The notes beneath the pieces were generated by a model. It did no database searches and was not told the origin of the DNA. It saw only the letters and a list, made by a program, of their open reading frames with translations. Below are positions 208-18,124 of a DNA stretch of 18,879 nt, one piece after another. Source of the stretch: a virus. The DNA lies in the UHGV virus genome UHGV-1689020; one strand, written 5' to 3'. Within the stretch, counting starts at the first letter, position 1. The number at the start of each line of letters is the position of its first letter. The translations under genes were made by a program, and so were the position numbers.

Positions 208-2121
208 ATGAGCAAAGTAAAAATCGGTGAATTAATAAACTCACTTGTTAGCGATGTTGAGTCAATAGATAACTCTGACCGTCCTCAAGGGGAAAAAACA
301 AAAAAAATAAAGGCTGTTGCATTAAAATTTAAAAATGCATTATTTAATGATAAGCGAAAGTTTAGGGGGAAAGGATTAGAAAAAAGAATTACAGCCAACA
401 CCTTCAATGCCTATATGAGCAGGGCCAGAAAACGGTTTGATGATAAACTTCATCATAGCTTTGAAAAAAATATACATCGCCTATCTGAAAAGTATCCTTT
501 ATATAATGAGGAGCTATTGTCATGGCTTTCTCTACCTGCTGCCGATATTCGCCAGAGAATGTCAGCTTTACAGGCAAAATTAAAATTAATTCTCCCTTTA
601 TCAGAAGATTTATCTAATATCAGAATTGGTGATAACAAAAGTCATAATAAGTTATTAAAATTATCAAATAAATATAAAGAGTGGCAATTCGCCATATCTG
701 ATTTAACTAGCGATAACTGGAAAGATAAGCGCGATTATTTATATAAATTACTACAGCAAGGATCTGCCTTACTTGAGGAGTTGAATCAGCTAAAAGTTAA
801 CCATGAGATTCTCTATCATCTTCAACTAAGCCCTGCCGAACGCGCATCTATCCAGCAACGATGGGCGGACGTTCTGCACAATAAGAAACGTAACGTGGTG
901 GTCATTGATTACCCTAAATATATGCAAGCTATTTACGATATTATAAATAGCCCTGCTACATTAAATAATCTAAACACTCGTTCAGGTATGGCTCCTTTGG
1001 CATTTGCACTTGCTGCATTGTCAGGAAGACGAATGATTGAGATTATGTATCAAGGTACATTTACTGTTTCTGGTAAGTATACCGTTGATTTTTTAGGCCA
1101 AGCAAAAAAAAGAACTTCTGATGATATAACCAGAAAAATATATACATTATGCGAAGCAAAAACATTTGTTTATTTAATAAATGTACTTCGCTCATGCCCA
1201 GCAGCATCTGATTTTGATGATGTCGTTAAAGGTTATGGAGATAACGACACACGCTCTGAAAACGGACGGATTAATGCCATATTAGCAAAGGCTTTTAACC
1301 CGTGGGTTAAATCATTTTTCAAAGATGACCGCCGTGTTTATAAAGATAGTCGTGCTATTTATGCCCGTATTGCGTATGAAATGTTTTTCCGCGTAGATCC
1401 TCGTTGGAAAAACGTAGATGAGGATGTTTTCTTTATGGAAATTTTAGGCCATGACGATGAAAACACTCAATTACACTATAAGCAATTCAAGCTGGCCAAC
1501 TTCTCAAAGACATGGAGGCCAAATACTGGAAACGAAAATACCAGGCTGGAAGCATTGCAGCAGCTTGATGACGAAATGCCAGGATTCGCCAGAGGAGATG
1601 CCGGGGTTCGTCTGCATAACACAGTTAAGCAGCTGGTAGAGCATGACCCCTCTATAAAAATCACGAACAGCACTCTAAGAGCATTCAAATTTAGCCCTAC
1701 AATGATTAGTCGATACCTGGAATTTGCTGCTGATGCTCTGGGGCAATTTGTTGGCGAAAATGGACAATGGCAGCTGAAAATAGATTCTCCAGAAATCGTT
1801 ATGCCTGACGAAGAAGAGCTGGAAGCAATACCTGAACAGACGGATGAATTATCAGAGGATGACGATCTGGATGACGACGAAATTGAGATAGAGGAAGAGG
1901 AAGAGGAAGAGGAAGAGGAAGAGGAAGAGAGCGTAGAAGAACAGCAACCGCCCGCGCCTTCTTCACCTGTATCTAAGCCGGTATTTAAGCCTGTGAGAAA
2001 TATTGGTGATGGCTCATACGTTGTTGAGTTTCATTATAATGGCCAGAATTATGCTTGGTCCGGCAGTGCAAACAGCCCTATATCAGCAATGCAGTTAGCA
2101 TGGCTGACATATTTCGGATAA
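208..2121 (+). CDS. telN: protelomerase (telomere resolvase), N15 TelN-like
   Basis: 637-aa ORF; N-terminus MSKVKIGELIN...FNDKRKFRGKGLEKRITANTFNAYMSRARKRFDDKLHHSF and long internal stretches match my recollection of N15 TelN nearly residue for residue; acidic C-terminal linker; AGGAGAGG Shine-Dalgarno before the ATG; adjacent to the telO-like palindrome. Confidence 0.93.
   Translation: MSKVKIGELINSLVSDVESIDNSDRPQGEKTKKIKAVALKFKNALFNDKRKFRGKGLEKRITANTFNAYMSRARKRFDDKLHHSFEKNIHRLSEKYPLYNEELLSWLSLPAADIRQRMSALQAKLKLILPLSEDLSNIRIGDNKSHNKLLKLSNKYKEWQFAISDLTSDNWKDKRDYLYKLLQQGSALLEELNQLKVNHEILYHLQLSPAERASIQQRWADVLHNKKRNVVVIDYPKYMQAIYDIINSPATLNNLNTRSGMAPLAFALAALSGRRMIEIMYQGTFTVSGKYTVDFLGQAKKRTSDDITRKIYTLCEAKTFVYLINVLRSCPAASDFDDVVKGYGDNDTRSENGRINAILAKAFNPWVKSFFKDDRRVYKDSRAIYARIAYEMFFRVDPRWKNVDEDVFFMEILGHDDENTQLHYKQFKLANFSKTWRPNTGNENTRLEALQQLDDEMPGFARGDAGVRLHNTVKQLVEHDPSIKITNSTLRAFKFSPTMISRYLEFAADALGQFVGENGQWQLKIDSPEIVMPDEEELEAIPEQTDELSEDDDLDDDEIEIEEEEEEEEEEEEESVEEQQPPAPSSPVSKPVFKPVRNIGDGSYVVEFHYNGQNYAWSGSANSPISAMQLAWLTYFG
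1891..1929 (+). repeat. (GAGGAA)n hexanucleotide tandem repeat encoding the poly-Glu tract of TelN
   Basis: six and a half perfect tandem GAGGAA units, translated as the E-run in ...EIEIEEEEEEEEEEEEEESVEE. Confidence 0.9.
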
Positions 2122-2132
2122 AGCATACGGTA

Positions 2133-2165
2133 AAGGCACCGAATTATCGGTGCCTTGTTGTGTGG
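2133..2165 (+). terminator. rho-independent terminator candidate after telN
   Basis: AAGGCACCGA-ATTA-TCGGTGCCTT, a 10-bp perfect stem with 4-nt loop, 12 nt after the telN stop, followed by GTTGTGTGG (T/G-rich, not a clean U-tract). Confidence 0.55.
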
Positions 2166-2166
2166 T

Positions 2167-2331
2167 CTACCTCGCCTGCCCCTTTTCGTCCTCATCCAAC
2201 TTTCTGATGGCCGTAGAATCAATACCCGCCGCCATACACACATCAGATGCAACAAACCACGGTTCGCCGTTAATCATCACTACACGAACCTGATGCTCTT
2301 CCTGAAAGGAAAAGACTGCTAACGCGCTCAT
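2167..2331 (-). pseudogene. truncated Bro-N/KilA-N domain antirepressor-like ORF (54 codons)
   Basis: hand translation of the minus strand gives MSALAVFSFQEEHQVRVVMINGEPWFVASDVCMAAGIDSTAIRKLDEDEKGQAR*; the F.F....VR....GEPWFVA.DV...G motif is the N-terminal signature of Bro-N antirepressor domains, but the ORF stops mid-domain; AAGGAGG upstream; its ATG overlaps the stop of the upstream ORF (ATGA); below the length cut-off of the supplied ORF track. Confidence 0.5.
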
Positions 2332-2561
2332 TCAGCCTCCTTATCGTGCAGCAATTGCGACGAGAGCGATGCTGAATAACCCTGTGCTTCGTGTGTTAGC
2401 TCACACGCAATTTGAAGGAGTTTCCCTGCTTCTGAGAGATAAATCGACGCCTCACAACTGGAGATTGTCCGATGGGCTGATGATACGAGCGCATAGACCT
2501 GAGCCAGACGTTCATCCAACGATTCCAGCAGGCCAACAGTGTTCATTTTTACCTGATTCAT
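2328..2561 (-). CDS. hypothetical small helical protein, middle gene of the anti-immunity-type operon
   Basis: 77-aa ORF; GAGGTGG upstream of the ATG; ATGA overlaps with both neighbouring ORFs indicate translational coupling. Confidence 0.55.
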   Translation of the reverse strand: MNQVKMNTVGLLESLDERLAQVYALVSSAHRTISSCEASIYLSEAGKLLQIACELTHEAQGYSASLSSQLLHDKEAE

Positions 2562-2722
2562 GCAGCCACCTCGCGCACCGGAATACGGGCAGACAATACC
2601 AGGACAAACCGGCTGGCGAACTGGCGACGAGCTTCCCGTTCAGATGACGCGATGGTGGAAAGATGATGGATGTGTGACTTTTTGTCTGTGCGAACGATTG
2701 CCGCAAATTTGAATTTGAACAT
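2558..2722 (-). CDS. small basic protein, possibly Icd-like (first gene of the anti-immunity-type operon)
   Basis: hand translation MFKFKFAAIVRTDKKSHIHHLSTIASSEREARRQFASRFVLVLSARIPVREVAA* (54 aa); GGAG 9 nt upstream of the ATG; stop overlaps the ATG of the next ORF; not in the ORF track (below cut-off); the Icd assignment is from position and faint similarity recalled from memory only. Confidence 0.45.
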   Translation of the reverse strand: MFKFKFAAIVRTDKKSHIHHLSTIASSEREARRQFASRFVLVLSARIPVREVAA

Positions 2723-2770
2723 GGTATGCACTCCGTTTAATTGGTCGTGCTACCACCAGAGTTCCTACGC

Positions 2771-2940
2771 TCTATATGGCGGTAGCCCAGACGGGGGTAG
2801 GAATACCGGTAAACGAAGAAACCGGCCAGCTAAAAGCTGCCCCATCTGAGCCACCATAAATTTGGTGTACGCAGATTTTACACACAAAAAAACACGCTGG
2901 CGCGTGTTGTGCGCTTCATTTACTCGGGTTCCTACGCCCG
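2771..2940 (-). ncRNA. candidate C4/CI/CA-like antisense regulatory RNA and leader region
   Basis: on the minus-strand transcript, GGGCGUAGGAACCC (from + 2926-2939) and GAGCGUAGGAAC (from + 2761-2772) are direct repeats flanking UUCCUACCCCC (from + 2793-2803), which is complementary to both (10/11 and about 9/11); an intrinsic terminator lies between the first repeat and the complementary element; exact RNA ends unknown. Confidence 0.3.
2881..2908 (-). terminator. rho-independent terminator inside the leader of the anti-immunity-type operon
   Basis: minus-strand reading AACACGC-GCCA-GCGTGTT followed by TTTTTTTGTGTG (7-bp GC-rich stem, 4-nt loop, U-tract). Confidence 0.55.
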
Positions 2941-2967
2941 GCTACGGGATTTACCGTAGCGGAGTAA

Positions 2968-2997
2968 ACTTTACCGTCAAAACGACGCGCACGTCAA
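2968..2997 (-). promoter_or_regulatory. candidate sigma70 promoter for the leftward anti-immunity-type operon
   Basis: minus-strand TTGACG (from + 2992-2997), 18-nt spacer, TAAAGT (from + 2968-2973); -10 is weak, so the call is tentative. Confidence 0.3.
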
Positions 2998-3016
2998 TAA
3001 TTTGCAAAGACATTTT

Positions 3017-3036
3017 ACCCCGTGACCAGTCACGGG
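3017..3036. promoter_or_regulatory. palindrome family B copy 1 (CCCCGTGAC-CA-GTCACGGGG), operator-like site upstream of the candidate promoter
   Basis: 20-bp 9-2-9 palindrome; its core CGTGAC-NN-GTCACG recurs at 7574-7587 and 14960-14973; lies between the stop of the 3099-3386 gene and the candidate -35. Confidence 0.6.
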
Positions 3037-3098
3037 GACAGGTGTTTTTATAGTTTGCTTGAACGAGTGATCAGAAGTTGATCGTTAATCAAAGGCCA

Positions 3099-3386
3099 TT
3101 ATTGATTAAGAGATTGGAAATACCTAACTAACTTACCGGCATCATCACATTTTTCTTTATCTTCGTCCTTAACATAGCCGCGACAAAAGGCTGAATAAAA
3201 TTTTGCATTTTCAGAAGCAAAAGCAGCCGTCGAAAGGAGCAGCTCTTTGCATGACTCTTTTGATGCAGCATCGGGATTATTTTTACATGCAAGGTCCGCT
3301 GATGAGTTAATAACAGAAATGCTATCTTCCTGGGCATAAACCGCAGCAGAAAAGGCAAAACATAAAACAAAAATAAAACTCTTCAC
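3099..3386 (-). CDS. small secreted or periplasmic cysteine-containing protein, function unknown
   Basis: ORF in track as 3099-3410; preferred start is the GTG at 3384-3386, preceded by AGGAGA at about 7 nt; predicted signal peptide MKSFIFVLCFAFSAAVYA then QEDS...; mature part of about 76 aa with 4 Cys. Confidence 0.6.
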   Translation of the reverse strand: MKSFIFVLCFAFSAAVYAQEDSISVINSSADLACKNNPDAASKESCKELLLSTAAFASENAKFYSAFCRGYVKDEDKEKCDDAGKLVRYFQSLNQ

Positions 3387-3413
3387 TTTATCTCCTGTAA
3401 CAGTCATCACAAT

Positions 3414-3809
3414 TCAATCAACTTTTTTAGCATCAGCCATACGATTCAACCAGAAATCAACAATCGGTTGCTCATCTACAGAATGTTTACCAGGTATAAC
3501 TCGCCAGCTATCTTGCGAAAATCTGCCGTACTTACGCGGGAATAGGCCTTTCTTTATCTCCCGCCATGTACTAGGAAAACCATCCACAAAAGTACCAATT
3601 AACAGGAGAGGGACAAAAATCAGAGCTACAAACCATCGTGCAATAAAGTGTTCAACAACAACATTTTCACCGTTGTAGTAATACGCATACGCATCCAATA
3701 TGCGAATTTTCCTTACCTTAAAAATAGCCTTATGCTGAGAACGACTTAACTTGATACGAATGTATCCCTTATCCAAAGGGGATTCGTATTTGTATGATTG
3801 AACAGCCAT
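3414..3809 (-). CDS. single-pass membrane protein, function unknown
   Basis: ORF in track as 3414-3821; preferred start is the ATG at 3807-3809, just after the upstream stop; one hydrophobic helix WFVALIFVPLLLIGTFV flanked by basic residues. Confidence 0.55.
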   Translation of the reverse strand: MAVQSYKYESPLDKGYIRIKLSRSQHKAIFKVRKIRILDAYAYYYNGENVVVEHFIARWFVALIFVPLLLIGTFVDGFPSTWREIKKGLFPRKYGRFSQDSWRVIPGKHSVDEQPIVDFWLNRMADAKKVD

Positions 3810-3811
3810 TT

Positions 3812-4141
3812 TTAACCCCACTCACCATCAGCAAACAAAGCGTTATACTCTGATAATGGTAAATGATGCCCCTCAATTGCCAGATTAAGCCCCAAACGGG
3901 TAGATGGGTGTTCCTTATCTGGCTCCTCCTCCCACAATTCAGAAGCTAAAGAAGCTAAACGCTCAGCCGCTTTCACGTAGTTTTCTGTCCTGAACCAACC
4001 CAAATTAATCCCACCATCAGTGATCGCCCAAGCTACTTTCTTCTCTTCTTCCTGAATAGCCTTAATGCGTCGATCGCATTCATCCCGGCAGAACTGCAGC
4101 TGACGGTAATCAAGTTTGTCTAAAAATGCAGTCGTCGACAT
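3812..4141 (-). CDS. hypothetical acidic cytoplasmic protein
   Basis: 109-aa ORF; GGGGAG 9 nt upstream of the ATG; first gene of a tight three-gene minus-strand cluster downstream of repA. Confidence 0.6.
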   Translation of the reverse strand: MSTTAFLDKLDYRQLQFCRDECDRRIKAIQEEEKKVAWAITDGGINLGWFRTENYVKAAERLASLASELWEEEPDKEHPSTRLGLNLAIEGHHLPLSEYNALFADGEWG

Positions 4142-4199
4142 ATTCTTACTCCCCGTTCACCGAAAAATCACGATTTCCACATACGATAATATCCACTGA

Positions 4200-7100
4200 T
4201 TACCCAAAGAAAGCGCCCTGCTCTTCGTAGCTGCATGAGCTATTCCCCGTAATGTATTCACGTAACCGCCGCAGCTCATTGCTGGAAAGGTGATCCATGA
4301 ACTCTGTGAGGTACAGAGATGCAAACGTCATAGCTATGCTGGCTGATGACCATGATGACATAGTGGCCAACTCCTCACTGGAAAGCGCACTCATCGCCCA
4401 GGACTCAGGTACAGCCACTGGCAACACGGCCAAAGCCTCAGAAATTACTGAATGAGGGGCGTTTTGAACCTGCTCGTTTGTGGATCGCGTTTTATCATCC
4501 ATATATATATTGAGATCCAAATCGCGATCCATTTCGATGGCTGTCTTCTCGGCTTTACGCGTTTTTAGGGTTAGGCCATCTTTCTGACGCTGAACAAGAA
4601 TATCCAGCATAAATGCCGCTGATTCAGGCTCAACAAAACGCAAGGTTGGACGCTTATCGCCGTCTCTGCCGCGACGTTTACCTGTTTTAAGGCCAAGAGA
4701 GTCGCAAATGTTTTTAAACAACGCTTCCGGCACTTTAGGCTTCCCTTTTGGCGTCATAAAACCACCAATGTGCAGAACGTTATTCAACAGGTCACGGCGT
4801 TCGGCTGTCATGAGGTTATCTCGAGCGAATTTGAGACGCTCCTGAGTCGCCTCGCCGGTCATAGTCTCAGGGTTGATACCGCAGTCGATAAAGTACTGCC
4901 GGAGAGTTGCTGATTTAAGCGCATAGAAACCGCGCGCCCCGACTTCAACAGTAGGAGTAGCTTTTACCTTGTGATCGATTATTCCAGGGAATTTAGTTTT
5001 AAAGACATCATCAGCCTGCTCGCGAGTCATCGCGGTCACTACAAAATATTGCCACTGTCCCGCCTGACGGTATGCGTAGGTAAAATTGATGGCTGCTTCT
5101 TCCCGGTCGTAACGACGAGCTGTTACCTCATCTAAAAGCATTGTTTCATAGCGGCGAACTTTGTCTCGAGCACCATCGAAATAGAATTTCAGCGTGCCTT
5201 CTTCAACCGGTAGTTTCAGTTCGTTTTCAATATCCCAGCGGACAAGTTTTGCCTGTTCTTCAAGCGTCAGCGCGCGTTTTTTTAGCAGTTTTTCACGCTC
5301 TGATTCTTGTGGAGTTTCTGTATTGAGGTGCAGATCCAGTGTCTGTTCCCACACAATATCCCGCGCTTCTTTACGCAGATCTTTACCGATATCATTCGCA
5401 GCATAATCGGTGGCCAGCGGTGATACCTTATAACCGTCGCTGTGCATGATGCAGATCATGTTGCTGGCGTAGTCGTTACGCGCAGTCGCTTCAATTGCGG
5501 CTGCTTTAATTTTCATCCTGGTAAAGTCGGTATTGGCCACCCCCATTGATATACGGTCGCCATCGAAAACGACATCCGTAAGTTCACCGTTCATACCTGC
5601 GGTAGCAAGCAATGCCTGGGCGAATGCTCGTTCTATTTTTTGCGGGTCAGTTTCACGTTTTGCACGAGCTTTATCAAAGCCGATAATAAATTCTTTTGCT
5701 GTACGGTCGCGGCGTAGCATTTGCACTGCGTCGCTGGGTACAACTTCACCACAGAACATGCCGAAATGACGGTCAAAATGTTTTTGCTCAATCGACACGC
5801 CGGATGAAATAGACGGGCTATAAATCAGGCCGTCGTATTTTTTGACCATCTTTTTCGGTTGATTGGTAAATGCTTCAACTTCTGGCTCTGGTTTGTTTTT
5901 CTGGTTTACACACAGAAATTTCTTACCAGGAAAATGCATTCTCAGGGTGGCTGTCACATCTTCTGCAAAGGTGGAGCTGTCGGTGGCCAACATGATTTTT
6001 TCGCCATCCGATACAGCTTTCACCACCTCGGTCATGATGCGATCTTTTTCTGTATAAAAAACCCGGATTGGCTCACCTGTTTCGCGGTTGCGAACATCAA
6101 CAGGTAATTCAATTACGTGGATCTGCAGCCATGCCGGTAAACCTAGTTCTTCACGGCGTTTCATAGCCAGTTCAGCCAGGTCAACCAGCAGATCGTTCGC
6201 ATCAGCATCCACCATTATTGGGTGTTGTTCCGTTCTGGCCAGCGCGTCAATTAGCGTATTGAATACAGCCACTGGGTTTTCCATAGCCCGACCGGAAAGA
6301 ACGGCACGTAGCCCTTGTGTGGCCTCGTCAAAGCCAAAATAGTCGTGCTGGCGCATCAACGGTTGCCAGCAGTTTTTAACAATCGAGTTTATGCAGATGG
6401 TCAGTTTACTGGCGTATGGAGCCATTTCCTGATAGCCAGGGTCCTGATAGTGCAGGATATCGGCTTTTACACCTTTTCCTTCTGTCATCATTTCCCACAG
6501 GCCACCAATAAGGGAGACACGGTGAGCAACAGAGATACCACGTTCTGAGCTATGCATTAACGGTCGTAACAATCCAGTAGATTTGCCGGAACCCATACCA
6601 GCACGGACGATGACTATCCCCTGTAGTGATTGCACGTACTTCAGGAGATCATCGGTCATTACCGAAGTTTCAAAACGCTTATAGGTGATATGTTGAGGGC
6701 GTTTATTGGGATCAGTTATGCGTTCGCTGAAAGAGCGCGGAGCCTGGGCAATACGGCACTTTTTATTCAGGCGACGGGCAATGTGGTCTTTTACCGTAGC
6801 GCGATAGATATTTTCCAGTCCCATTTCACGCAGAACGATGCAGAACATGTTAAATAAATCTGACGGACTGTTAGGAACCGGGCAGGTTAGCATGCCAATA
6901 TCCACCGCTCTCAGCAGCTCTTTGGCAAAAGTACGACGGTTATCCCGCTTAATTGTCTTCAGGCGGTTGAGCGTCAGAGATAGCAAATCAGTACCGGTTT
7001 TCAGGCGGTTTGCTGTTGCAAATAGTTGACGTGCTGTTTCACGAAGTCCACGTAGTTTGTGCAGGTCGTTGAAGTCACTGCACTCCATTTGCGGATCGTC

Positions 7101-8195
7101 TTCAAAAGTTGGATAGACGCAGCGGACATCGTTGAATTTCGATAAGATTTCATAGCCAGTCCGCAGGCCGGTATTCCCTTTTCCTTCTGTGGCAGATTTC
7201 CGGTCATTATCCAGTGCGCAGGTGATTTTTACCGCCGGGTACATGTTTACCAGTTGTTCCACAACATGAACCATGTTGTTAGCGGATACAGCGACAACCA
7301 CAGCGTCAAAGCGTTTATCTTTTTTCGTGGCAAGCCAGATGGATGCACCAGTAGCAAAACCTTCTGTAACAGCGATGTTTTGCGCCCCTTTCAGCTCACC
7401 GATAACAAAGCAGGCACCGACGAAATCGCCGCTGGTTACTGCGCTGGTCTGGTATTTCCCACCTTGTTTGTCGATTCGCTGCCAACCCACAATACGACCA
7501 TCGTAACGACCGTCCAGGTGAGCCAGAGGGATAGCCATATATGTGGTTGGTCCCCGACTCCATTTCGCACTGTCGTGACTGGTCACGCGACGCACATCAC
7601 ATGAACTAAAAACGTCACGAATACCTTTTTTAATCGCATATGGCCATGAGCCGTCTTCAGCCGGAGCATGTTCCCACGCGCTGTGGAATGCCAGCCATCC
7701 CAGCAAACGTTCATGGTCCATTTGGTTGTTTTTCAGGTCATTAATTCGTTTTTGTTCTTCACGGCGACGACGTGCTTCGGCCTGACGTTCTATTCTTTCC
7801 CGTTCTTCTTCCGGTTGTGCGACCACGGTCGCATTATTCCGTTGTTGCTCACGGCGATATTCAGAAAACAGGAAGGAGAAACCGCTCCATGAGCCAGCAT
7901 CGCTGCCTTTATGGACGAAGTTAATGAACGGGTAATCAATCCCTTTGCTGTGTTCCAGCCGGGAGTAAATTTCTACGCGTCCTTTCAGGCTCTTTTCGAG
8001 AGCTTCTGGAGATGTTTTATTGTATGAAGAGTAACGCTCAACCCCCCCGCGAGGGTTGAGTTGGATGTTGTCGGAACAGGCAGGCCAGTTGATACCAGCC
8101 ATCTGTGCCAGCTCGGTTAGTTCATCCCGTGCTGCTTCAATTAGCGAGAACGGATCGCTGCCAAAGCGATCCGCATAGAAATCGTTTAATGTCAT
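4200..8195 (-). CDS. repA: multifunctional replication protein RepA (primase-helicase), N15 RepA-like
   Basis: 1331-aa ORF; Walker A motif GMGSGKST in the central part; size, orientation and position between telN and cB match N15 repA as I recall it (about 1300 aa). Confidence 0.88.
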   Translation of the reverse strand: MTLNDFYADRFGSDPFSLIEAARDELTELAQMAGINWPACSDNIQLNPRGGVERYSSYNKTSPEALEKSLKGRVEIYSRLEHSKGIDYPFINFVHKGSDAGSWSGFSFLFSEYRREQQRNNATVVAQPEEERERIERQAEARRRREEQKRINDLKNNQMDHERLLGWLAFHSAWEHAPAEDGSWPYAIKKGIRDVFSSCDVRRVTSHDSAKWSRGPTTYMAIPLAHLDGRYDGRIVGWQRIDKQGGKYQTSAVTSGDFVGACFVIGELKGAQNIAVTEGFATGASIWLATKKDKRFDAVVVAVSANNMVHVVEQLVNMYPAVKITCALDNDRKSATEGKGNTGLRTGYEILSKFNDVRCVYPTFEDDPQMECSDFNDLHKLRGLRETARQLFATANRLKTGTDLLSLTLNRLKTIKRDNRRTFAKELLRAVDIGMLTCPVPNSPSDLFNMFCIVLREMGLENIYRATVKDHIARRLNKKCRIAQAPRSFSERITDPNKRPQHITYKRFETSVMTDDLLKYVQSLQGIVIVRAGMGSGKSTGLLRPLMHSSERGISVAHRVSLIGGLWEMMTEGKGVKADILHYQDPGYQEMAPYASKLTICINSIVKNCWQPLMRQHDYFGFDEATQGLRAVLSGRAMENPVAVFNTLIDALARTEQHPIMVDADANDLLVDLAELAMKRREELGLPAWLQIHVIELPVDVRNRETGEPIRVFYTEKDRIMTEVVKAVSDGEKIMLATDSSTFAEDVTATLRMHFPGKKFLCVNQKNKPEPEVEAFTNQPKKMVKKYDGLIYSPSISSGVSIEQKHFDRHFGMFCGEVVPSDAVQMLRRDRTAKEFIIGFDKARAKRETDPQKIERAFAQALLATAGMNGELTDVVFDGDRISMGVANTDFTRMKIKAAAIEATARNDYASNMICIMHSDGYKVSPLATDYAANDIGKDLRKEARDIVWEQTLDLHLNTETPQESEREKLLKKRALTLEEQAKLVRWDIENELKLPVEEGTLKFYFDGARDKVRRYETMLLDEVTARRYDREEAAINFTYAYRQAGQWQYFVVTAMTREQADDVFKTKFPGIIDHKVKATPTVEVGARGFYALKSATLRQYFIDCGINPETMTGEATQERLKFARDNLMTAERRDLLNNVLHIGGFMTPKGKPKVPEALFKNICDSLGLKTGKRRGRDGDKRPTLRFVEPESAAFMLDILVQRQKDGLTLKTRKAEKTAIEMDRDLDLNIYMDDKTRSTNEQVQNAPHSVISEALAVLPVAVPESWAMSALSSEELATMSSWSSASIAMTFASLYLTEFMDHLSSNELRRLREYITGNSSCSYEEQGAFFG
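4481..4531. other. candidate replication origin element inside the 3' part of repA
   Basis: 9-bp inverted repeat TGGATCGCG ... CGCGATCCA flanking a 33-bp AT-rich spacer containing (AT)5 and three GATC sites within about 50 bp; the N15 ori is reported to lie within the 3' end of repA (recalled from literature). Confidence 0.35.
7574..7587. repeat. palindrome family B copy 2 (CGTGAC-TG-GTCACG), inside repA coding sequence
   Basis: exact 14-bp core shared with 3019-3034 (inverted centre) and 14960-14973. Confidence 0.6.
7818..7833. repeat. palindrome family A copy 1 (TGCGACC-AC-GGTCGCA), sopC/centromere-like, inside repA coding sequence
   Basis: 16-bp 7-2-7 palindrome identical to copies at 10261-10276 (inverted) and 16787-16802; differs from the F sopC SopB site TGGGACCACGGTCCCA (recalled) at one position per arm. 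Confidence 0.65.
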
Positions 8196-8318
8196 TTTTT
8201 AGCCATTCCATGCGAATTATGTTTTTTCGGGTTGAAAAAATCCGCAGGAGCAGCCACAATAAACACATCTTGAATTGACGGAATCCGTCGCGTTGTTGTG
8301 GCTGCTTCCTGAAAAGGA

Positions 8319-8346
8319 CCCGAGTTTGCCGACTCGGGTTTTTTTT
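8319..8346. terminator. hairpin plus T-tract between cB and repA, possible bidirectional terminator
   Basis: CCCGAGT-TTGCCG-ACTCGGG followed by TTTTTTTT on the + strand; on the minus strand the same hairpin is followed by UCCUUUUCAGG; also a 10-bp inverted repeat GCAGCCACAA (8250-8259) / TTGTGGCTGC (8296-8305) just upstream. Confidence 0.45.
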
Positions 8347-8440
8347 CGTCTTTTTTCTGCTGCTGTAACCTGAGTCAACCCACAGAACATATGCCCTGCA
8401 TTAAACCAGATTTACAGCAAACAATAAACCCCGTATTAAG

Positions 8441-9037
8441 TCATCTACCCTCAACCATGAATGATTTGATCGTTCCGACTATTTGGTGAACAAATTCAAG
8501 ATCGCTTTTCCTGAAGATGGCGCGTTGTGAGTTTGTTCCATCCAGATAGTAATTTTCATCATCAAAACGGGCCAGGCGCTGGATAGTGATATTTCCTGCA
8601 GTATCACGAACCAGAACATCCTCGCCGGGGACCAGTTCCAGCGCAGAATCGACCAGGAGAAAATCGCCTGGCTGATAGTTTCCCTGCGTAAGATTGCTGA
8701 TAGTTAACGCATACACAGTATTGCGCTGGCTGATGAATGGCAGGAATCGCTCAGTATTTGGAACCTGTCCCGGCTTCCACTCTTCATCCGGCCCACTTTC
8801 AGTTGTGCCAATAACAGGAATGCGGTCAGGGTCATATTCTGTCCCATATAGCACCCAATGCACTGGCTTGCGTAAGCACTTAGCCAGGGCAATACCTATC
8901 TCCAGTGACGGCATTACGTCGCCACGTTCTAAGTTTTGGACGCCTGCTATAGAGATATCGACAGCCTCAGCAACTTCTCGCAACGTCAGCTTCATCTCTA
9001 AACGGCGTGCTTTCAGTCGTTCGCCTCGTGTTTTCAT
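8441..9037 (-). CDS. cB: prophage repressor CB (HTH-XRE N-domain, CI/LexA-like C-domain apparently lacking the catalytic Ser motif)
   Basis: 198-aa ORF; N-terminal HTH LTLREVAEAVDISIAGVQNLERG; C-terminal ...PGDFLLVD... fold signature but no GxSM motif; divergent from cro across an operator-containing intergenic region. Confidence 0.8.
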   Translation of the reverse strand: MKTRGERLKARRLEMKLTLREVAEAVDISIAGVQNLERGDVMPSLEIGIALAKCLRKPVHWVLYGTEYDPDRIPVIGTTESGPDEEWKPGQVPNTERFLPFISQRNTVYALTISNLTQGNYQPGDFLLVDSALELVPGEDVLVRDTAGNITIQRLARFDDENYYLDGTNSQRAIFRKSDLEFVHQIVGTIKSFMVEGR

Positions 9038-11529: not shown

Positions 11530-11819
11530 TGAATATCGACACCACGATAACGATCGATACGGCCCTAAATATCGGTCTGGCACTTCTCGGTTGGTTTTAC
11601 ATCATGTTCAGTGCGGGGAAGTGGGCGGCCTCTGTTTTTCTAAAGCAGTGGGGAAAGCACCGCAAACAGGAAAGACGCCAGAAAGTGTTAGAGGCGTTCT
11701 ATGACGCATTTGAACTTAGCCGCATTGAGCCAGGCACAACAGCCAAGATAGCGACAAAAGGCGACCTGATGATAGTGATGTTCCGACAGGAGAGAGCAGA
11801 GAAAGGGGAATCAGCATGA
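11529..11819 (+). CDS. small membrane protein, function unknown
   Basis: GTG start overlapping the upstream stop (TAGTG) with AGGAGGTGG upstream; hydrophobic segment LNIGLALLGWFYIMFSAG. Confidence 0.5.
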   Translation: MNIDTTITIDTALNIGLALLGWFYIMFSAGKWAASVFLKQWGKHRKQERRQKVLEAFYDAFELSRIEPGTTAKIATKGDLMIVMFRQERAEKGESA

Positions 11820-12448
11820 AATTTTCCAAATTTTCTGAGTTGGTGAATCGTATTTTGTCCAACAACCACAGCCATCGTCGCGATATGGATGTAACAATCG
11901 TTATTCATTCGCCTGGCAGCATTGGTTCAACACCCTCAGTTGAGGTTCAGTCAATTCACGCTGGTTTTGATTGGGATTCCGGGAAAGTGCTGATTTTTCC
12001 ATCACAGCCACTGACCACGCTAACACCAGAGCAGGTTGCTGATATCACTGATAGTGTGCGCAAAGGTCAGTCTTGGCACGCATATCAGGAATATAAGAAG
12101 CATAAAGAGCAGTTGGAAAAATTGTCGATTGAACTGGATGCCGCAAAACAGCGCATTGCAGAGCTGGAGGGTAATCGCACGGCGCTGGCGGCGGAGAATG
12201 CGGGGCTTAAACAGTCGGAGAAGGAATTTAATAACTTCTGTCGTCAGGAGTACTACGGTTGGGAGGACAACTTCACGGAAACCCCAGCCACCGACGCTTT
12301 CCTGGCTGAAATTGAACGCAAAGCAATCCGCAAGTTCATTAACAGCATTGAACACATCCTGCGTGACAAGCTGTCTCCGTATGATACCGAAGAGATGCTT
12401 GAGGCTATGCGTATTTTTCTGGAAGAACAGGAAGGTGAGCAAAAATGA
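11816..12448 (+). CDS. hypothetical protein with coiled-coil region
   Basis: 210-aa ORF, ATGA overlap with the upstream gene; heptad-like region LEKLSIELDAAKQRIAELEGNRTALAAENAGLK. Confidence 0.55.
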   Translation: MKFSKFSELVNRILSNNHSHRRDMDVTIVIHSPGSIGSTPSVEVQSIHAGFDWDSGKVLIFPSQPLTTLTPEQVADITDSVRKGQSWHAYQEYKKHKEQLEKLSIELDAAKQRIAELEGNRTALAAENAGLKQSEKEFNNFCRQEYYGWEDNFTETPATDAFLAEIERKAIRKFINSIEHILRDKLSPYDTEEMLEAMRIFLEEQEGEQK

Positions 12449-12759
12449 CGATCACAAAACAACGTGTAGAAGAAATCATATCCCGTATTGAAATGTATGG
12501 GCATGGTGCCGGGTATACCGCTGATGAGGTTTATGACCTTGCTGTACTGGCGCTGAATTTATCAAATATCGCAAAACTCAAGCGATACGAGCTTGATATG
12601 GATGGTTGTGACTCGTTCGGTCAGGATTGTGGCGCTGACATGACTGAAGATTCTGATGGCGATTATGTCCTGTTTGATGACGTAGTTAAGTTGTTTGAGT
12701 TTGATACATTCGAAAGCCCAGTAAAGGAGGCAGCCAGTGAGCGGAAAAAGAATGACTAA
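12445..12759 (+). CDS. hypothetical acidic protein
   Basis: 104-aa ORF, ATGA overlap with the upstream gene, GGTGAG upstream. Confidence 0.5.
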   Translation: MTITKQRVEEIISRIEMYGHGAGYTADEVYDLAVLALNLSNIAKLKRYELDMDGCDSFGQDCGADMTEDSDGDYVLFDDVVKLFEFDTFESPVKEAASERKKND

Positions 12760-12961
12760 CAGAGAGCTTGTCGATGCCGCGATTAAGCTTGCTGGTGATT
12801 TTTATTCAATGATGGGGTACACGCATCGCCCAGGCTTCAAATATTGGGAGTCTCCTCACCCGCAAGAGCAACTGGTATTTCAAATGGCCTGCCGTGCTTT
12901 TGAGGTTATTCGCGGTTCTGATGTGATGGACGCCGTTGCCGACTTGGAGGATGAAGAGTGA
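12737..12961 (+). CDS. hypothetical protein
   Basis: 74-aa ORF from GTG 12737 with AAGGAGG 6 nt upstream; overlaps the previous ORF by 23 nt. Confidence 0.5.
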   Translation: MSGKRMTNRELVDAAIKLAGDFYSMMGYTHRPGFKYWESPHPQEQLVFQMACRAFEVIRGSDVMDAVADLEDEE

Positions 12962-13506
12962 GCGAAATTAATTATCAGGCACTGCGTGATGCGGCAGAAA
13001 AGGCAACGAAAGGGAGCTACATCGTAGGGCATACATCTGTTAACCAGCACGGCAATTTAACAGGAGTTTTTGTTTGCCAAAAATGGAAAGGAGAACCCGG
13101 TGGCGTGATTGCAGAATGTCATGTTAACTGCCTGGTTGAAACAGATGCTCAGGCTTACGCAAACGCTGAATTTATTGCTGCCTTTAATCCAAATGTTGCG
13201 CTGGCACTACTGGATGAACGGGAAAGAAACCAGCAATACATAAAATCCCGCGACAAGGAGAACGAGGATATTGCGCTAACGGTAGGGAAGCTGCGCGTTG
13301 AGCTTGAAGCAGAAAAACAGCGGGCAAAAGTTCTATTTATGGAAAATGCTCGGCTTAAGTCAGGCATAGCCGGTCTGATACACCTCGGTATTCGATATGC
13401 AGATGTTGAGGTCATGAAAATTGCTGGAGATGCCCAGCTTTCTACCCCATGCACTGACAGCATCATAAACAGCATTGCAACAGGCATTCGCATCAAAGGA
13501 GAGTGA
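12958..13506 (+). CDS. Ead/Ea22-like protein
   Basis: 182-aa ORF from GTG 12958 (GGAGGA upstream); internal segment AEFIAAFNPNVALALLDERERN resembles the Ea22-family signature I recall (...NPATVLALLDE...); C-terminal coiled-coil. Confidence 0.55.
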   Translation: MSEINYQALRDAAEKATKGSYIVGHTSVNQHGNLTGVFVCQKWKGEPGGVIAECHVNCLVETDAQAYANAEFIAAFNPNVALALLDERERNQQYIKSRDKENEDIALTVGKLRVELEAEKQRAKVLFMENARLKSGIAGLIHLGIRYADVEVMKIAGDAQLSTPCTDSIINSIATGIRIKGE

Positions 13507-13507
13507 T

Positions 13508-13771
13508 ATGGCAACTTTAACAAAAAAAGAACGGGCATGGTTGAACGAATTACAGGACGTTCTTGATCGCTGCCCATCACCGAAAAAAATTGGTTTTTAC
13601 ACCATTGGCGATAAAAGCATTTACCTGTATGACCTGCGCCGCATGGATGAAATCATGGAGGCTCTTGATAATCGTTCGTCGATGGATTGGTGTGTTGCTG
13701 TCCATGATATGAATGCCGGATTTGATGAAAGGATTTTGTTCCCCTCATCAGTTGAAAGCACTGCGGGTTAA
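13508..13771 (+). CDS. hypothetical protein
   Basis: track ORF 13475-13771; preferred start is the ATG at 13508, preceded by AAAGGAGAG and 2 nt after the upstream stop. Confidence 0.5.
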   Translation: MATLTKKERAWLNELQDVLDRCPSPKKIGFYTIGDKSIYLYDLRRMDEIMEALDNRSSMDWCVAVHDMNAGFDERILFPSSVESTAG

Positions 13772-13781
13772 GGAGTAACAC

Positions 13782-14168
13782 ATGACCACTATTACCAAAG
13801 AGCGACTACTGACAATCAAACAGTGGCGCGAAACATACGGACCTGGTAGCAACGTTGTACTGCCAGCAGAAGAAGCGGAAGAACTGGCACGAATTGCTCT
13901 GGCATCGCTGGAAGCAAAACCAATAGGTGCATTCCACATTGCAGAACAGCAAGTTGACGGCACAAGTGACTACCTCAAGGATGGAGAATGGCCTATTGAT
14001 AATGGAATTATTGAGGTCTACGCCGCTCCACCCGTTCCAGTAGTACCGGAAGAAAAACCAATGCCTAATCCTCTTAGCATGTACGCGGTTGATGCTGTTG
14101 CCGCTATTGCAGAGGTGAGAGGCTGGAATGCCTGCCGCGCTGCTATGCTTCAGGGAAAAGGAGAGTGA
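13782..14168 (+). CDS. hypothetical protein
   Basis: 128-aa ORF, AAGGAG 7 nt upstream; begins MTTIT like the next gene. Confidence 0.55.
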   Translation: MTTITKERLLTIKQWRETYGPGSNVVLPAEEAEELARIALASLEAKPIGAFHIAEQQVDGTSDYLKDGEWPIDNGIIEVYAAPPVPVVPEEKPMPNPLSMYAVDAVAAIAEVRGWNACRAAMLQGKGE

Positions 14169-14169
14169 T

Positions 14170-14622
14170 ATGACCACTATAACCGATAAGAAACAGTATC
14201 CAGGCGAGCAATATCTTAATGAGCTGATCACCAACATAGAGTTTGCTGCAAGGGCACCAGTTGAAGTCGTGAGAGCGATGGCAGCAGAGCTACAGAAGCG
14301 GCGCGAAGCTGATAGTGCAGAACCTGTAAGCCAAACTTACAAGTTAACTTTTGAGCAATGGCTGGAACGGCAGCACGGCAAAATTGATGTTGATTGCGGC
14401 TGTGTGAGCACTGAAACGCTTCTGCACTGGATGCGTGTGGCGTATGAGGCTGGCAACTCTCCGGTAACTCCGGATGGTCATGTTCAGTTTTCTGTTTCAC
14501 TTCCTGCAGCGTTTGGTGGAGATAAATATTTTATTGATGGTGTATTTCAACCTTTGAGATATGAGCGTGACTGTGAAAGGGCGGTTGTGGTCGCTGGCGG
14601 TGTAGTTAATTGGGTTAAGTAA
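14170..14622 (+). CDS. hypothetical protein
   Basis: track ORF 14128-14622; preferred start is the ATG at 14170, preceded by the same AAAGGAGAGTGATATG junction seen at 13495-13510. Confidence 0.55.
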   Translation: MTTITDKKQYPGEQYLNELITNIEFAARAPVEVVRAMAAELQKRREADSAEPVSQTYKLTFEQWLERQHGKIDVDCGCVSTETLLHWMRVAYEAGNSPVTPDGHVQFSVSLPAAFGGDKYFIDGVFQPLRYERDCERAVVVAGGVVNWVK

Positions 14623-15225: not shown

Positions 15226-15307
15226 AAATTGACCGTCAAGTTTGAGTTTTAACCTGTAATTTTATACAGTATAAATAACCTTTTTTAGTTAAATGGTATG
15301 AGATCTA

Positions 15308-15511
15308 ATGTCTGAAGCAGCCGTATCAACTCTTGAACAACTCGATTCAAATTTAAGAGATATTGACGCCGTTCTGGATCTGGTTAGCGTCACCCTGGCT
15401 TCTCCAGAAGCCAGCCTACATATTGGTGAGGTTTCACGACTCATCAACATGTCGCGAGAGATTGCCCAGCATTGTCAGAAAACTATCGCTGTTGAGCGTT
15501 CACATCATTGA
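15308..15511 (+). CDS. hypothetical small acidic protein
   Basis: 67-aa ORF after an AT-rich intergenic region; weak Shine-Dalgarno; convergent with the toxin-antitoxin pair. Confidence 0.4.
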   Translation: MSEAAVSTLEQLDSNLRDIDAVLDLVSVTLASPEASLHIGEVSRLINMSREIAQHCQKTIAVERSHH

Positions 15512-15553
15512 TGCACACCCCGCCCTTCTGGACGGGGTAGTAAAAGAGTCTAA

Positions 15554-15841
15554 TTAATAAACAGCGCGAATATCGATGGTTGCGCCGCAGGCATGAGCAT
15601 ATTTAGCCAAAGTTTTCATACTTGCCCCTAAAGGATTGCTTTCCAGGCGGCTGATGGCTGACGGTCGCAACCCCATTCGTTCAGCCAGAGCTGATTTCGT
15701 TAAACCTGCTCTTTCCCTCATTTCGTATAGCATTTCGACCATCTCCAGCTCTTTGTCGGCCTCTTCATATCCTTTGACGGCTTCTGGAGTGTTGAGGAGT
15801 TTTTCTTTTACTTCGTTAAACGGGATGCCTTTCGCTTTCAT
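15554..15841 (-). CDS. HTH-XRE antitoxin (HigA-like)
   Basis: 95-aa ORF; HTH GLTKSALAERMGLRPSAISRLE; ATG overlaps the stop of the upstream toxin gene (ATGA). Confidence 0.75.
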   Translation of the reverse strand: MKAKGIPFNEVKEKLLNTPEAVKGYEEADKELEMVEMLYEMRERAGLTKSALAERMGLRPSAISRLESNPLGASMKTLAKYAHACGATIDIRAVY

Positions 15842-16152
15842 CAGTTCATCTCCTTCAGGCGAGTTCTGGCGATTTCGATAGCCTTCACCGGTGTTTTCTG
15901 TGTCTTTTTTACAAATGCATGCAATAGATAAATTTCGTTACCAGTCGCGTAGGCGTACAGCGTTCTTGCGATGTTTTTATCCCCTACTCGTAGTTCAAAA
16001 AGCCCTCCACCTATTACACGGCTATGGGGCATCTTCAGTTTGTTGCCTTCTTTCTCCAGTCGCTCAATTAATCTGGTCATGCGACCTCGCAAATCATCTG
16101 GTAGTTCAAGCAGTTCATCCAGTGCTGCAGGGTGGGTTATCACGTTAAACAT
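15841..16152 (-). CDS. RelE/ParE-superfamily toxin, Gp49-like (HigB-like)
   Basis: track ORF extends to 16197, but GGAGG sits 8 nt upstream of the ATG at 16150-16152 (MFNVITHPAALDELLELPDD...); C-terminal LFELRVGDKNIARTLYAYATGNEIYLLHAFVKKTQKTP is the Gp49-like toxin pattern as I recall it; toxin-upstream, antitoxin-downstream order as in higBA. Confidence 0.75.
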   Translation of the reverse strand: MFNVITHPAALDELLELPDDLRGRMTRLIERLEKEGNKLKMPHSRVIGGGLFELRVGDKNIARTLYAYATGNEIYLLHAFVKKTQKTPVKAIEIARTRLKEMN

Positions 16153-16317
16153 ATTATAGCCTCCATATCCATAAAATACACCAAAACAAGAAAACAACGC
16201 AAATTAAAAATTTCACTAAAAAGCGAAAAATAACACTGGATGTGTTCGTTTGGCAGAGTTACAGTTCGTGTCATTGAGAGGCAATAACCCACTAACTATA
16301 TGAATTTGGAGGATATT

Positions 16318-16539
16318 ATGAATTATCAAGGTAACGAAAAAATGCGCGACGATGTTGCGGAGATAGCTAACGAACTGTATGAGTTGTGGCAGAAGGTTGA
16401 ACGTTTCGAAAAGGAATATGGTTTCAACAGTACCAACCTAACAGACCGACTGGCTGGTCGCTTAGTTGGGACTATGGGGCCAAAACTGGCTGAGTTGAAC
16501 CGCTTTATGGCTGATGTTGATTTCCAGTTTCAAGATTGA
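16318..16539 (+). CDS. hypothetical small protein
   Basis: track ORF 16300-16539; GGAGG lies 5 nt upstream of the second ATG at 16318. Confidence 0.5.
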   Translation: MNYQGNEKMRDDVAEIANELYELWQKVERFEKEYGFNSTNLTDRLAGRLVGTMGPKLAELNRFMADVDFQFQD

Positions 16540-16782: not shown

Positions 16783-16806
16783 GCTGTGCGACCACGGTCG
16801 CACAGC
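16783..16806. promoter_or_regulatory. palindrome family A copy 3, extended (GCTGTGCGACC-AC-GGTCGCACAGC), sopC/centromere-like, at the head of the late region
   Basis: 24-bp 11-2-11 palindrome containing the 16-mer core (16787-16802); intergenic, 3 nt after the stop of the previous gene. Confidence 0.65.
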
Positions 16807-16887: not shown

Positions 16888-16914
16888 AAGCCGCCTTTAT
16901 GGCGGTTTTTTTGT
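16888..16914 (+). terminator. rho-independent terminator candidate (possible tR'-like) in the late regulatory region
   Basis: CCGCC-TTTAT-GGCGG followed by TTTTTTT. Confidence 0.5.
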
Positions 16915-16956: not shown

Positions 16957-17047
16957 GTCAACCCATGCCAGAGCTATAGGCTGAACCTAAAGCCCACCCG
17001 CGATGCGCATCGCCGGGTTAGCTTACCCAGGCAAAAAAATAATAGCT

Positions 17048-18124
17048 ATGTTCAAAACCACTAATATTCATGGCGCACAACTCGTTTGCGCAGATTCTCT
17101 GCAATTTATCAAAACCATCCCTGATAACTCGGTCAATTTGATTGCAACAGACCCACCATACTTCGGCGTAAAGGCTAACGCATGGGATAACCAGTGGGAT
17201 AGCGATGCTGACTTTTTGGGGTGGATTGACGAATTTTTGGCAGAATTTTGGCGGATATTGGCCCCTAATGGCAGCCTGTATATGTTTACCGGCTCTCGCC
17301 TTGCGTCAAAAATTGAATTATTAACTCGCGACCGTTTCAATGTTCTGAACCATATCATTTGGGCTAAACCAAGTGGTATGTGGCGCGGTTGTCATAAAGA
17401 AAGTTTAAGGGCTTATTTTCCTGCTACTGAAAGAATATTATTTGCAGAGCATTACGGCGCGTCAGGTTATGCTAAAGGTCAGTCAGGTTATGCTTCAAAA
17501 TGTGCAGATTTAAGAAAAAATATTTTTTCTCCACTAATTGATGCTTTTTCGCTGGCTCGCCGTCAGTTAGATATATCAGCCGCAGACATTAATTCAGCGA
17601 CAGGAAAGCAGATGTGTTCACACTGGTTTTCTTATTCGCAGTGGCGGCTTCCATCATTAATTGATTTTAATAAACTATGCGAATTATTTCGCAGGAAGGC
17701 AGATTCACTCGGTGTCCCGTGTCCATATCCTTTTAATGTTGATTATTCAGAACATGAAAAGCGTTATAGCGATCTGAAATTGCATTATGAGGAAGTAAAG
17801 AAGCAGTATGATGATTTGAAGGCTCAGTATGAAAATTTACGCCGTCCATTTCATGTTACTGCTGATGTACCTTATACCGATGTATGGGAGTTTCCTCCTG
17901 TGCAATATTATCCTGGCAAGCACCCATGTGAAAAACCTGCAGCGATGATGGAACATATTATAAAGAGTAGTTCACGCCCCGGAGATATCGTTGCCGATTT
18001 CTTTATGGGATCAGGCTCAACTATTAAAGCTGCGCTGAAGTTAGGACGTCAGGCAATAGGTATTGAGATTGAGGGCGAACGTTATCTTCAGACAGTTGAT
18101 GAAGTGAAAAAGTTATTTGAGTAA
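17048..18124 (+). CDS. DNA methyltransferase (beta-class amino-MTase; DPPY motif, so likely N6-adenine or N4-cytosine)
   Basis: track ORF starts at 17003, but the typical MTase N-terminus begins at ATG 17048 (MFKTTNIHGAQLVCADSLQFIKTIPDNSVNLIATDPPYF); AdoMet motif FFMGSGST near the C-terminus; no adjacent restriction endonuclease candidate. Confidence 0.8.
   Translation: MFKTTNIHGAQLVCADSLQFIKTIPDNSVNLIATDPPYFGVKANAWDNQWDSDADFLGWIDEFLAEFWRILAPNGSLYMFTGSRLASKIELLTRDRFNVLNHIIWAKPSGMWRGCHKESLRAYFPATERILFAEHYGASGYAKGQSGYASKCADLRKNIFSPLIDAFSLARRQLDISAADINSATGKQMCSHWFSYSQWRLPSLIDFNKLCELFRRKADSLGVPCPYPFNVDYSEHEKRYSDLKLHYEEVKKQYDDLKAQYENLRRPFHVTADVPYTDVWEFPPVQYYPGKHPCEKPAAMMEHIIKSSSRPGDIVADFFMGSGSTIKAALKLGRQAIGIEIEGERYLQTVDEVKKLFE

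Follow-up and report, generated by a model that had tools for sequence, protein, structure and literature searches.

The closest described relative of the locus analysed here, a leftward two-gene cassette of the virus genome UHGV-1689020 (18,879 nucleotides (nt), the whole of which we call the window) that we read as a toxin-antitoxin (TA) module, is the gp49/gp48 gene pair of phage N15. N15 gp49 is the protein that gave the Pfam family Gp49 its name. Going by its title and by papers that cite it, the work of Dziewit et al. 2007 (J Bacteriol 189:1983) is said to have found the N15 pair functional, with both toxicity and neutralisation, and the toxicity and stabilisation experiments have reportedly, in essence, already been done on that pair. 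Three papers that cite Dziewit et al. 2007 (PMC2701414, PMC5906591, PMC12977533) present the N15 pair as a stabilising TA system that is a homolog of pAMI2 tad-ata. The Tad-Ata system of Paracoccus aminophilus pAMI2, as portrayed in PMC2701414, has a toxin of the same family (PF05973; DUF891, COG4679), a helix-turn-helix (HTH) antitoxin and a toxin-first gene order, and it stabilises plasmids; it is a distant homolog, which we liken to the window pair by its description. PMC5906591 puts the identity of validated Tad toxins to other toxins with a Gp49 domain at only about 20%.

Two structurally characterised systems, HigBA of Streptococcus pneumoniae (6AF3/6AF4) and HigB1 of Mycobacterium tuberculosis (7AWK/7NBU), share with the window toxin a long C-terminal helix and a set of E/R/R/F/K residues; however, the sequence identity of their toxins to the window toxin is only 24–30% and their codon specificity is not transferable. 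The M. tuberculosis HigB1 system needs a SecB-like chaperone, whereas the window has no chaperone gene. Classical HigBA (plasmid Rts1, E. coli K-12) likewise pairs a RelE-superfamily messenger RNA (mRNA) nuclease (mRNase) with an XRE-type HTH antitoxin in a toxin-first operon and stabilises plasmids. In contrast to the window toxin, which matches PF05973 alone, classical HigB belongs to PF05015/PF09907. A preliminary description of this DNA had called the cassette HigB/HigA-like; that name applies by gene order and fails by family, as the toxin matched neither PF05015 nor PF09907, nor any Pfam family besides PF05973, at E ≤ 0.01.

Escherichia phages PhiR46_1 and YDC107_1 match the window at 97–99% identity, and N15, phiKO2 and Klebsiella relatives match it at about 75% over long stretches; by these matches the window is a linear phage-plasmid of the N15 type from E. 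coli. We read it as a phage-plasmid, as the preliminary description had done, because it encodes a protelomerase and a RepA-like primase. We found by alignment that its cassette is directly orthologous to N15 gp49/gp48, a relationship that the preliminary description had overlooked: the gene order, the 1-nt gene overlap, the Shine-Dalgarno (SD) sequence and start codon, and the upstream dyad are all the same, and the pair occupies the same position, between an AntC-like gene and gp50. The two loci differ in that their DNA identity is only about 77–80%, the dyad reads TTTCGCT in the window and TTTCACT in N15, the window has 1 nt less between –35 and –10, and N15 has a strong downstream terminator with a T-run where the window has a GC hairpin without a T-run. 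We consider it very probable that the cassette, which is orthologous to N15 gp49/gp48 and sits on an N15-type linear phage-plasmid, is a functional type II TA operon belonging to the Gp49 (Tad-Ata, 'HigBA-like') family, because of this orthology, the RefSeq annotation, the toxin fold, the catalytic residues, the conserved pairing of the genes, their ratios of nonsynonymous to synonymous substitution (dN/dS) and the covariation of the dyad.

The toxin and antitoxin genes

The cassette consists of two open reading frames (ORFs) on the minus strand, as had been described, with the toxin gene first and the antitoxin gene second.

16152..15841, minus strand: toxin gene, 103 amino acids (aa) plus stop, ATG at 16152; Gp49/Tad-type, RelE superfamily, N15 gp49 ortholog
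16164-16160, minus strand: SD sequence GGAGG, 7 nt 5' of the toxin ATG, read from the sequence
15841..15554, minus strand: antitoxin gene, 95 aa plus stop, with an N-terminal region of about 30 aa and an XRE-type HTH at the C-terminus; N15 gp48 ortholog

The ATG of the antitoxin gene shares one base with the stop codon of the toxin gene (TGATG, in the context AAC TGA TG AAA), so that the two small, co-oriented genes overlap by 1 nt, as type II TA genes do. The assignment to a Gp49-type toxin with an XRE-type antitoxin was borne out by profile searches. The toxin matches Pfam Gp49 (PF05973) over profile positions 1–90 of 90 with E 2.5e-29 and 101.6 bits, where the cut-off is 23.9, and phrog_2523 with E 2.6e-43, while an NCBIfam search matched no model to it. 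Given this full-length profile match, the fold and the catalytic residues described below, the toxin is a member of the Gp49 (PF05973)/Tad toxin family. The antitoxin matches Pfam HTH_3 at residues 38–90 (E 2.8e-12), matches only generic HTH models in NCBIfam, all below their cut-offs, and shows weak sequence matches to the solved HigA2 (7ewc) and S. pneumoniae HigA (6af3_B). Amino-acid identity of the toxin is 92% with N15 gp49 and 91% with phiKO2 gp49, and that of the antitoxin is 85% with N15 gp48 and 80% with phiKO2 gp48.

The toxin ORF can be extended to a TTG at 16197, giving a 118-aa version with the same end at 15841. We found that the same ATG at 16152 is used for the 312–315-nt toxin gene in N15, phiKO2, PhiR46_1 and RefSeq records, that toxin homologs are mostly 102–108 aa long, and that GGAGG-N7-ATG is kept in N15, phiKO2, the IncI plasmid copy described below and most relatives. 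In-frame translation 5' of this ATG is not conserved among relatives. Because the annotations agree, the homolog lengths fit, GGAGG-N7-ATG is conserved, the extension is not, and promoter-like elements lie within the extension, the true toxin start is, from this comparison, the internal ATG with its GGAGG, just as the preliminary description had proposed; the TTG start was rejected as its extension is unconserved and overlaps the conserved candidate promoter. The record of PhiR46_1 has a 135-nt 'hypothetical protein' coding sequence (CDS) at 3341-3475, equivalent to about 16140-16274 of the window on the minus strand, which runs across the toxin start, the TA promoter region and the dyad; this CDS is probably a spurious call.

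To see how widely the two genes occur together, we surveyed 80 loci from many bacterial phyla, with one genome per species, counting as antitoxin-like any ORF with a phmmer E < 1e-3. An antitoxin-like ORF was found directly 3' of the toxin in 77 of the 80 loci, nearly always overlapping the toxin gene; of the three loci without one, at least two are on contigs that stop shortly past the toxin gene. When the window copies were compared with those of N15, phiKO2, the IncI plasmid and Pseudocitrobacter, dN/dS was 0.03–0.04 for the toxin and 0.05–0.07 for the antitoxin, with synonymous sites near or at saturation in these comparisons. Such values show both genes to be, as judged from their codons, under strong purifying selection. 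The toxin-first overlapping pair in 77/80 loci together with dN/dS of 0.03–0.07 argues that the pairing of the genes is not due to chance.

Fold and active site of the toxin

A single-chain AlphaFold (AF2) model of the toxin, built on 48 homologs, had a predicted local distance difference test score (pLDDT) of 87 and a predicted template modelling (pTM) score of 0.81, with the topology beta-alpha-alpha-beta4-alpha and a long C-terminal helix (residues 89–102), a trait of Gp49-like toxins (PMC9098466). When we compared this model with the PDB using Foldseek, the best match was S. pneumoniae HigB (6af4) with a template modelling (TM) score of 0.81, followed by the M. tuberculosis HigB1 toxin of the toxin-antitoxin-chaperone (TAC) system in its ribosome-bound (7nbu, TM 0.77) and free (7awk) forms and then by RelE proteins. 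In HMMER alignments, toxin residues E53, R55, F80 and K82 align with E66, R68, F90 and K92 of S. pneumoniae HigB and with E66, R68, F93 and K95 of M. tuberculosis HigB1; R63 corresponds to R73 and R77, respectively, only after the pairwise alignment is shifted by one or two residues. In the alignment of 48 homologs, F52, E53, L54, R63 and K82 are invariant and R55 and F80 are at least 90% conserved. Mutagenesis has found that the E/R/R/F/K residues matter in both S. pneumoniae HigB (PMC7984235) and M. tuberculosis HigB1 (PMC9098466). From the model and these alignments, the toxin has a predicted RelE/HigB (RelE/BECR) fold and retains the catalytic residues known from characterised members of the family. 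Cleavage of mRNA by M. tuberculosis HigB1 takes place only on the ribosome, where it is in frame and at the A site (PMC9098466), and a 2025 survey classes PF_gp49 toxins as ribosome-dependent mRNases with a toxin-antitoxin gene order (PMC11980606). On the strength of this A-site cleavage and this classing, ribosome-dependent mRNA cleavage would be the best-supported mechanism for the window toxin.

The control region and a conserved dyad

Comparison of relatives pointed to the following elements 5' of the toxin gene, and a further hairpin lies in the convergent gap beyond the antitoxin gene.

16173..16180, minus strand: candidate –10 element, TGTATT or TATTTT (TATATT in N15 and phiKO2), its position kept in relatives with diverged spacers
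16197..16202, minus strand: candidate –35 element TTGCGT (TTGTGT in N15; TTGACA, TTGACG or TTGACT in distant relatives), from comparative alignment
16211-16228, minus strand: dyad TTTCGCT-tttt-AGTGAAA, with one mismatch; perfect TTTCACT-N4-AGTGAAA in most relatives
15516..15539, minus strand: GC-rich hairpin between the antitoxin and AntC-like genes, RNA folding energy –22 kcal/mol (z –2.5), U-tract absent from both strands

The –35 and –10 candidates, which are spaced by 16–18 nt among the relatives, are our candidate TA promoter; a generic consensus scan for promoters and terminators called neither a TA promoter nor a terminator. The sole minus-strand promoter-like hit of that scan, at 16322-16295, is disfavoured: it falls within the start of gp50, and the IncI copy of the cassette lacks it.

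The dyad is located –76 to –78 from the toxin ATG in nearly all close relatives, and more distant copies carry the compensated variants CTC/GAG, CTA/TAG, ATC/GAT and CAT/ATG. We tested this covariation on 17 distinct sequences against 500 shuffles and against slid controls. In the dyad, 90.8% of cells were paired and three positions had double (compensatory) changes; none of the 500 shuffles reached this pairing or the covariation score, and pairing in the slid controls was 20–50%. We also compared the dyad with the predicted recognition helix of the antitoxin: PSAISRLE accompanies CAC/GTG, PSAITRLE accompanies CTC/GAG in two lineages (L008, L015) and, in a third (L130), a CTC confined to the left arm, QSGINSLM accompanies CTA/TAG and QSALNRLE accompanies ATC/GAT, a correlation that is confounded by phylogeny. 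The dyad goes along with the cassette into the IncI plasmid and is lost together with the toxin gene in a relative that carries hicAB, and because of this shared fate it is probably the operator of the antitoxin or of the toxin-antitoxin complex. A resemblance to a second operator half-site over the –10 element (TTTT[A/G]GTG...) is seen in N15 and the window and is inconsistent in distant relatives.

In the N15 record, the same dyad is annotated at 2424-2444 as a 'putative rho-independent terminator'. The stem is AT-rich, with 7 bp and 2 G-C pairs, and the fold of 16195-16260 reaches –10.4 kcal/mol (z –1.5). We disfavour the terminator because of this weak stem, yet a hairpin would give the same covariation. 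On the other side of the operon, the region 3' of the antitoxin gene differs by context; N15 and phiKO2 each have their own stem-loop there, that of N15 with a T-run, and in the window the hairpin at 15516-15539 is probably the transcript end.

A mobile cassette in an exchangeable slot

Outside the N15-type phage-plasmids, the IncI-gamma/K1 conjugative plasmid pRHB42-C01_2 carries a copy of the locus with 84% identity, and the homology is confined to a segment that runs from the antitoxin stop to just past the upstream dyad.

15556..16229, minus strand: mobile cassette of about 674 bp (dyad, promoter, toxin and antitoxin), bounded by the limits of the IncI plasmid homology

Among 5426 complete E. 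coli genomes, 16 carry the cassette, on a plasmid in every case (16/16), and in all 16 the RefSeq label is 'type II toxin-antitoxin system RelE/ParE family toxin' for the toxin and HTH regulator for its partner. The cassette also matches 605 PLSDB plasmids, 356 of them typed as conjugative, and the top-listed records among the 605 have the same RefSeq labels for toxin and partner. This distribution shows a cassette that, as far as sequence comparison can tell, is mobile between phage-plasmids and conjugative plasmids. At 1851-5597 of pRHB42-C01_2, the TA cassette has as its neighbours genes for an Abi-family protein and a HEPN nuclease together with IS66/IS256 elements, and the region resembles a small defence or accessory island.

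The same slot holds a different TA system in Enterobacter phage MStein-2023a (Ravinvirus), which has hicA/hicB at 7490-8560 between the flanks that enclose gp49/gp48 elsewhere, and in which we found no gp49 homolog. Its hicA encodes 60 aa (Pfam HicA_toxin, E 6.8e-10) and its hicB 143 aa (HicB-like, E 2e-12). The left breakpoint lies exactly at the upstream edge of the dyad and coincides with the cassette border. After hicAB comes a gp48-like antitoxin gene with a frameshift near codon 57, and a frameshifted gp48 where the gp49 toxin gene is missing fits an antitoxin that would be kept only while its toxin is present. Because hicAB occupies the same position in MStein-2023a, the comparison shows the cassette position to be an apparently exchangeable TA slot in N15-like phages. 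The wording 'inserted' in the preliminary description was therefore fair, given both the IncI homology limited to 15556-16229 and hicAB in the same slot.

Plasmid addiction and alternative roles

If the cassette works as a TA addiction module, the toxin would enter the ribosomal A site and cleave translated mRNA, and the antitoxin would bind the toxin via its N-terminal part. An antitoxin dimer would bind the dyad via its HTH and repress the operon (autoregulation), and translational coupling would keep the ratio of toxin to antitoxin fixed. On loss of the prophage-plasmid, the labile antitoxin would no longer be made and the remaining toxin would arrest or kill the cell (post-segregational killing); addiction of this kind may stabilise the low-copy linear plasmid alongside its partition system. 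An addiction module is expected on an extrachromosomal low-copy replicon, and the window has genes for a protelomerase and for a RepA primase, with all 16 of the E. coli occurrences on plasmids. Several observations weigh against this explanation. The Gp49-family toxins HigB2 and HigB3 of M. tuberculosis were non-toxic on expression (PMC9098466), and the homologous pair s044/s045 of SXT gave no measurable stabilisation of SXT in its native context (PMC2654960), so that stabilisation of a test plasmid is no proof of a maintenance role in the native element. In the window itself, the candidate –35 element fits the consensus at 3/6 positions, the dyad carries one mismatch, and it lies 8 nt 5' of the candidate –35 and not over the core promoter, which is not what a simple repression model would predict.

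The non-toxic M. tuberculosis toxins, the SXT pair and the mismatch in the dyad would all suit an inert or domesticated remnant, in which the 'toxin' is non-toxic and the HTH protein is now only a transcription factor for phage genes. We consider such a remnant very improbable: dN/dS is 0.03–0.07 on both genes and all catalytic positions are intact; in the relative that lacks the toxin gene the antitoxin gene carries a frameshift, which would be expected of an antitoxin kept solely to neutralise an active toxin; and the 92%-identical N15 pair is reported to be functional. A different target for the toxin, namely that it is a ParE-like gyrase poison and not an mRNase, would agree with the RefSeq label 'RelE/ParE family', which fits either class, and with a fold common to both, and ParE structures do appear in the Foldseek search. 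However, they appear at ranks 27–34 with TM 0.45–0.56 and E 0.03–0.14, far weaker than the HigB/RelE matches (TM up to 0.81, E 1e-6). The residues that characterised Gp49 toxins require for RNase activity are conserved, and PF_gp49 is classed among the ribosome-dependent mRNases (PMC11980606); we give the gyrase poison almost no credence.

Of more weight is the proposal that the main selected role of the cassette is anti-phage defence, by abortive infection or superinfection exclusion, in which infection would perturb the supply or stability of the antitoxin and free the mRNase; such a role is compatible with addiction. In E. coli, the PF_gp49 HigB of one toxin-antitoxin-chaperone module sets off abortive infection when the lambda tail protein is sensed (PMC11980606), the IncI plasmid copy adjoins Abi-family and HEPN nuclease genes, and the N15-like slot can be exchanged for another TA system, hicAB. 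In contrast to that module, the cassette has no chaperone or sensor component. The locus gave no full match to a PADLOC model, with toxin residues 43–95 partially matching the C-terminus of NsnC and the antitoxin giving generic HTH hits only, and its restriction to plasmids in complete E. coli genomes (16/16) fits a maintenance role. On balance, defence as the main role seems to us rather unlikely, and we continue to favour the functional TA operon with a role in plasmid addiction.

Neighbouring genes and genomic setting

The preliminary description had placed the cassette among rightward genes with a convergent and a divergent flank, and this is how we found its neighbours to be arranged.

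15308-15511, plus strand: left neighbour of the cassette, convergent with the antitoxin gene, gap 42 nt
16300-16539, plus strand: gp50-like ORF, likely start 16318; right neighbour, divergent from the toxin gene, gap about 165 nt
208-2121: protelomerase, with four TelK domains
4200-8195: RepA-type primase, 1331 aa
8441-9037: CB-like repressor
17003-18124: DNA methylase

In the gp50-like ORF, the second ATG (16318) has its own GGAGG in front of it, the alignment to the PHROG profile begins at residue 7, and counterparts in relatives are annotated as a 222-nt gene; the gp50-like gene probably starts at 16318 rather than 16300. The left neighbour is a 67-aa ORF. Its homolog in N15, at 56% identity, is an ORF that lies between genes 47 and 48, is unannotated and likewise has a LexA box (N15 3416-3431). 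We rejected N15 gp47 as a homolog of the 67-aa ORF, as the two have no similarity. The sole perfect LexA box in the window, CTGTAATTTTATACAG at 15254-15269, lies 39 nt 5' of the 67-aa ORF, which looks like an SOS-controlled antirepressor gene of the AntC type, positioned head-on to the TA operon.

The slot between the AntC-like gene and gp50 may be a dedicated exchangeable 'TA socket' of N15-type phage-plasmids, and the head-on convergence, the 42-nt gap and the hairpin without a U-tract raise the idea that the TA operon there is functionally coupled to the LexA-controlled antirepressor gene; we consider this reading very improbable. If it were true, SOS-induced read-through could silence antitoxin synthesis and free the mRNase during induction; conversely, TA transcription could dampen leaky expression of the antirepressor and stabilise lysogeny.

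Further from the cassette, part of the early rightward region, at about 11798-14330 (Ea22, exonuclease VIII-like and LygF-like genes), matches lambdoid and Stx-converting phages at 94–98% identity and is not common to N15, a pattern of identity that indicates apparent mosaic exchange between N15-like phage-plasmids and lambdoid prophages. To the right of the cassette, a sopC-like palindrome, GTGCGACCACGGTCGCAC at 16786-16803, is identical to a phiKO2 site annotated as a putative plasmid partitioning site; 3' of it there is a late-promoter-like region and then, at about 16889-16914, a strong hairpin that resembles a terminator and has a T-run.

Implications

The cassette is no new kind of system: it is already known as the characterised N15-type gp49/gp48 pair, and current annotation pipelines name it. 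What our analysis adds is the re-reading of the dyad as an operator, the borders of the cassette of about 674 bp and the hicAB swap in a relative. For annotation, the cassette can be labelled an N15 gp49/gp48-type (Tad-Ata, PF_gp49) addiction module with the 103-aa toxin start, the 135-nt CDS of PhiR46_1 over the TA promoter should be dropped, and the 'terminator' feature of N15 is better read as an operator. Taken together, these data confirm that one TA cassette is common to N15-type phage-plasmids in E. coli, Klebsiella and related genera and that it circulates also on IncI and other conjugative plasmids.

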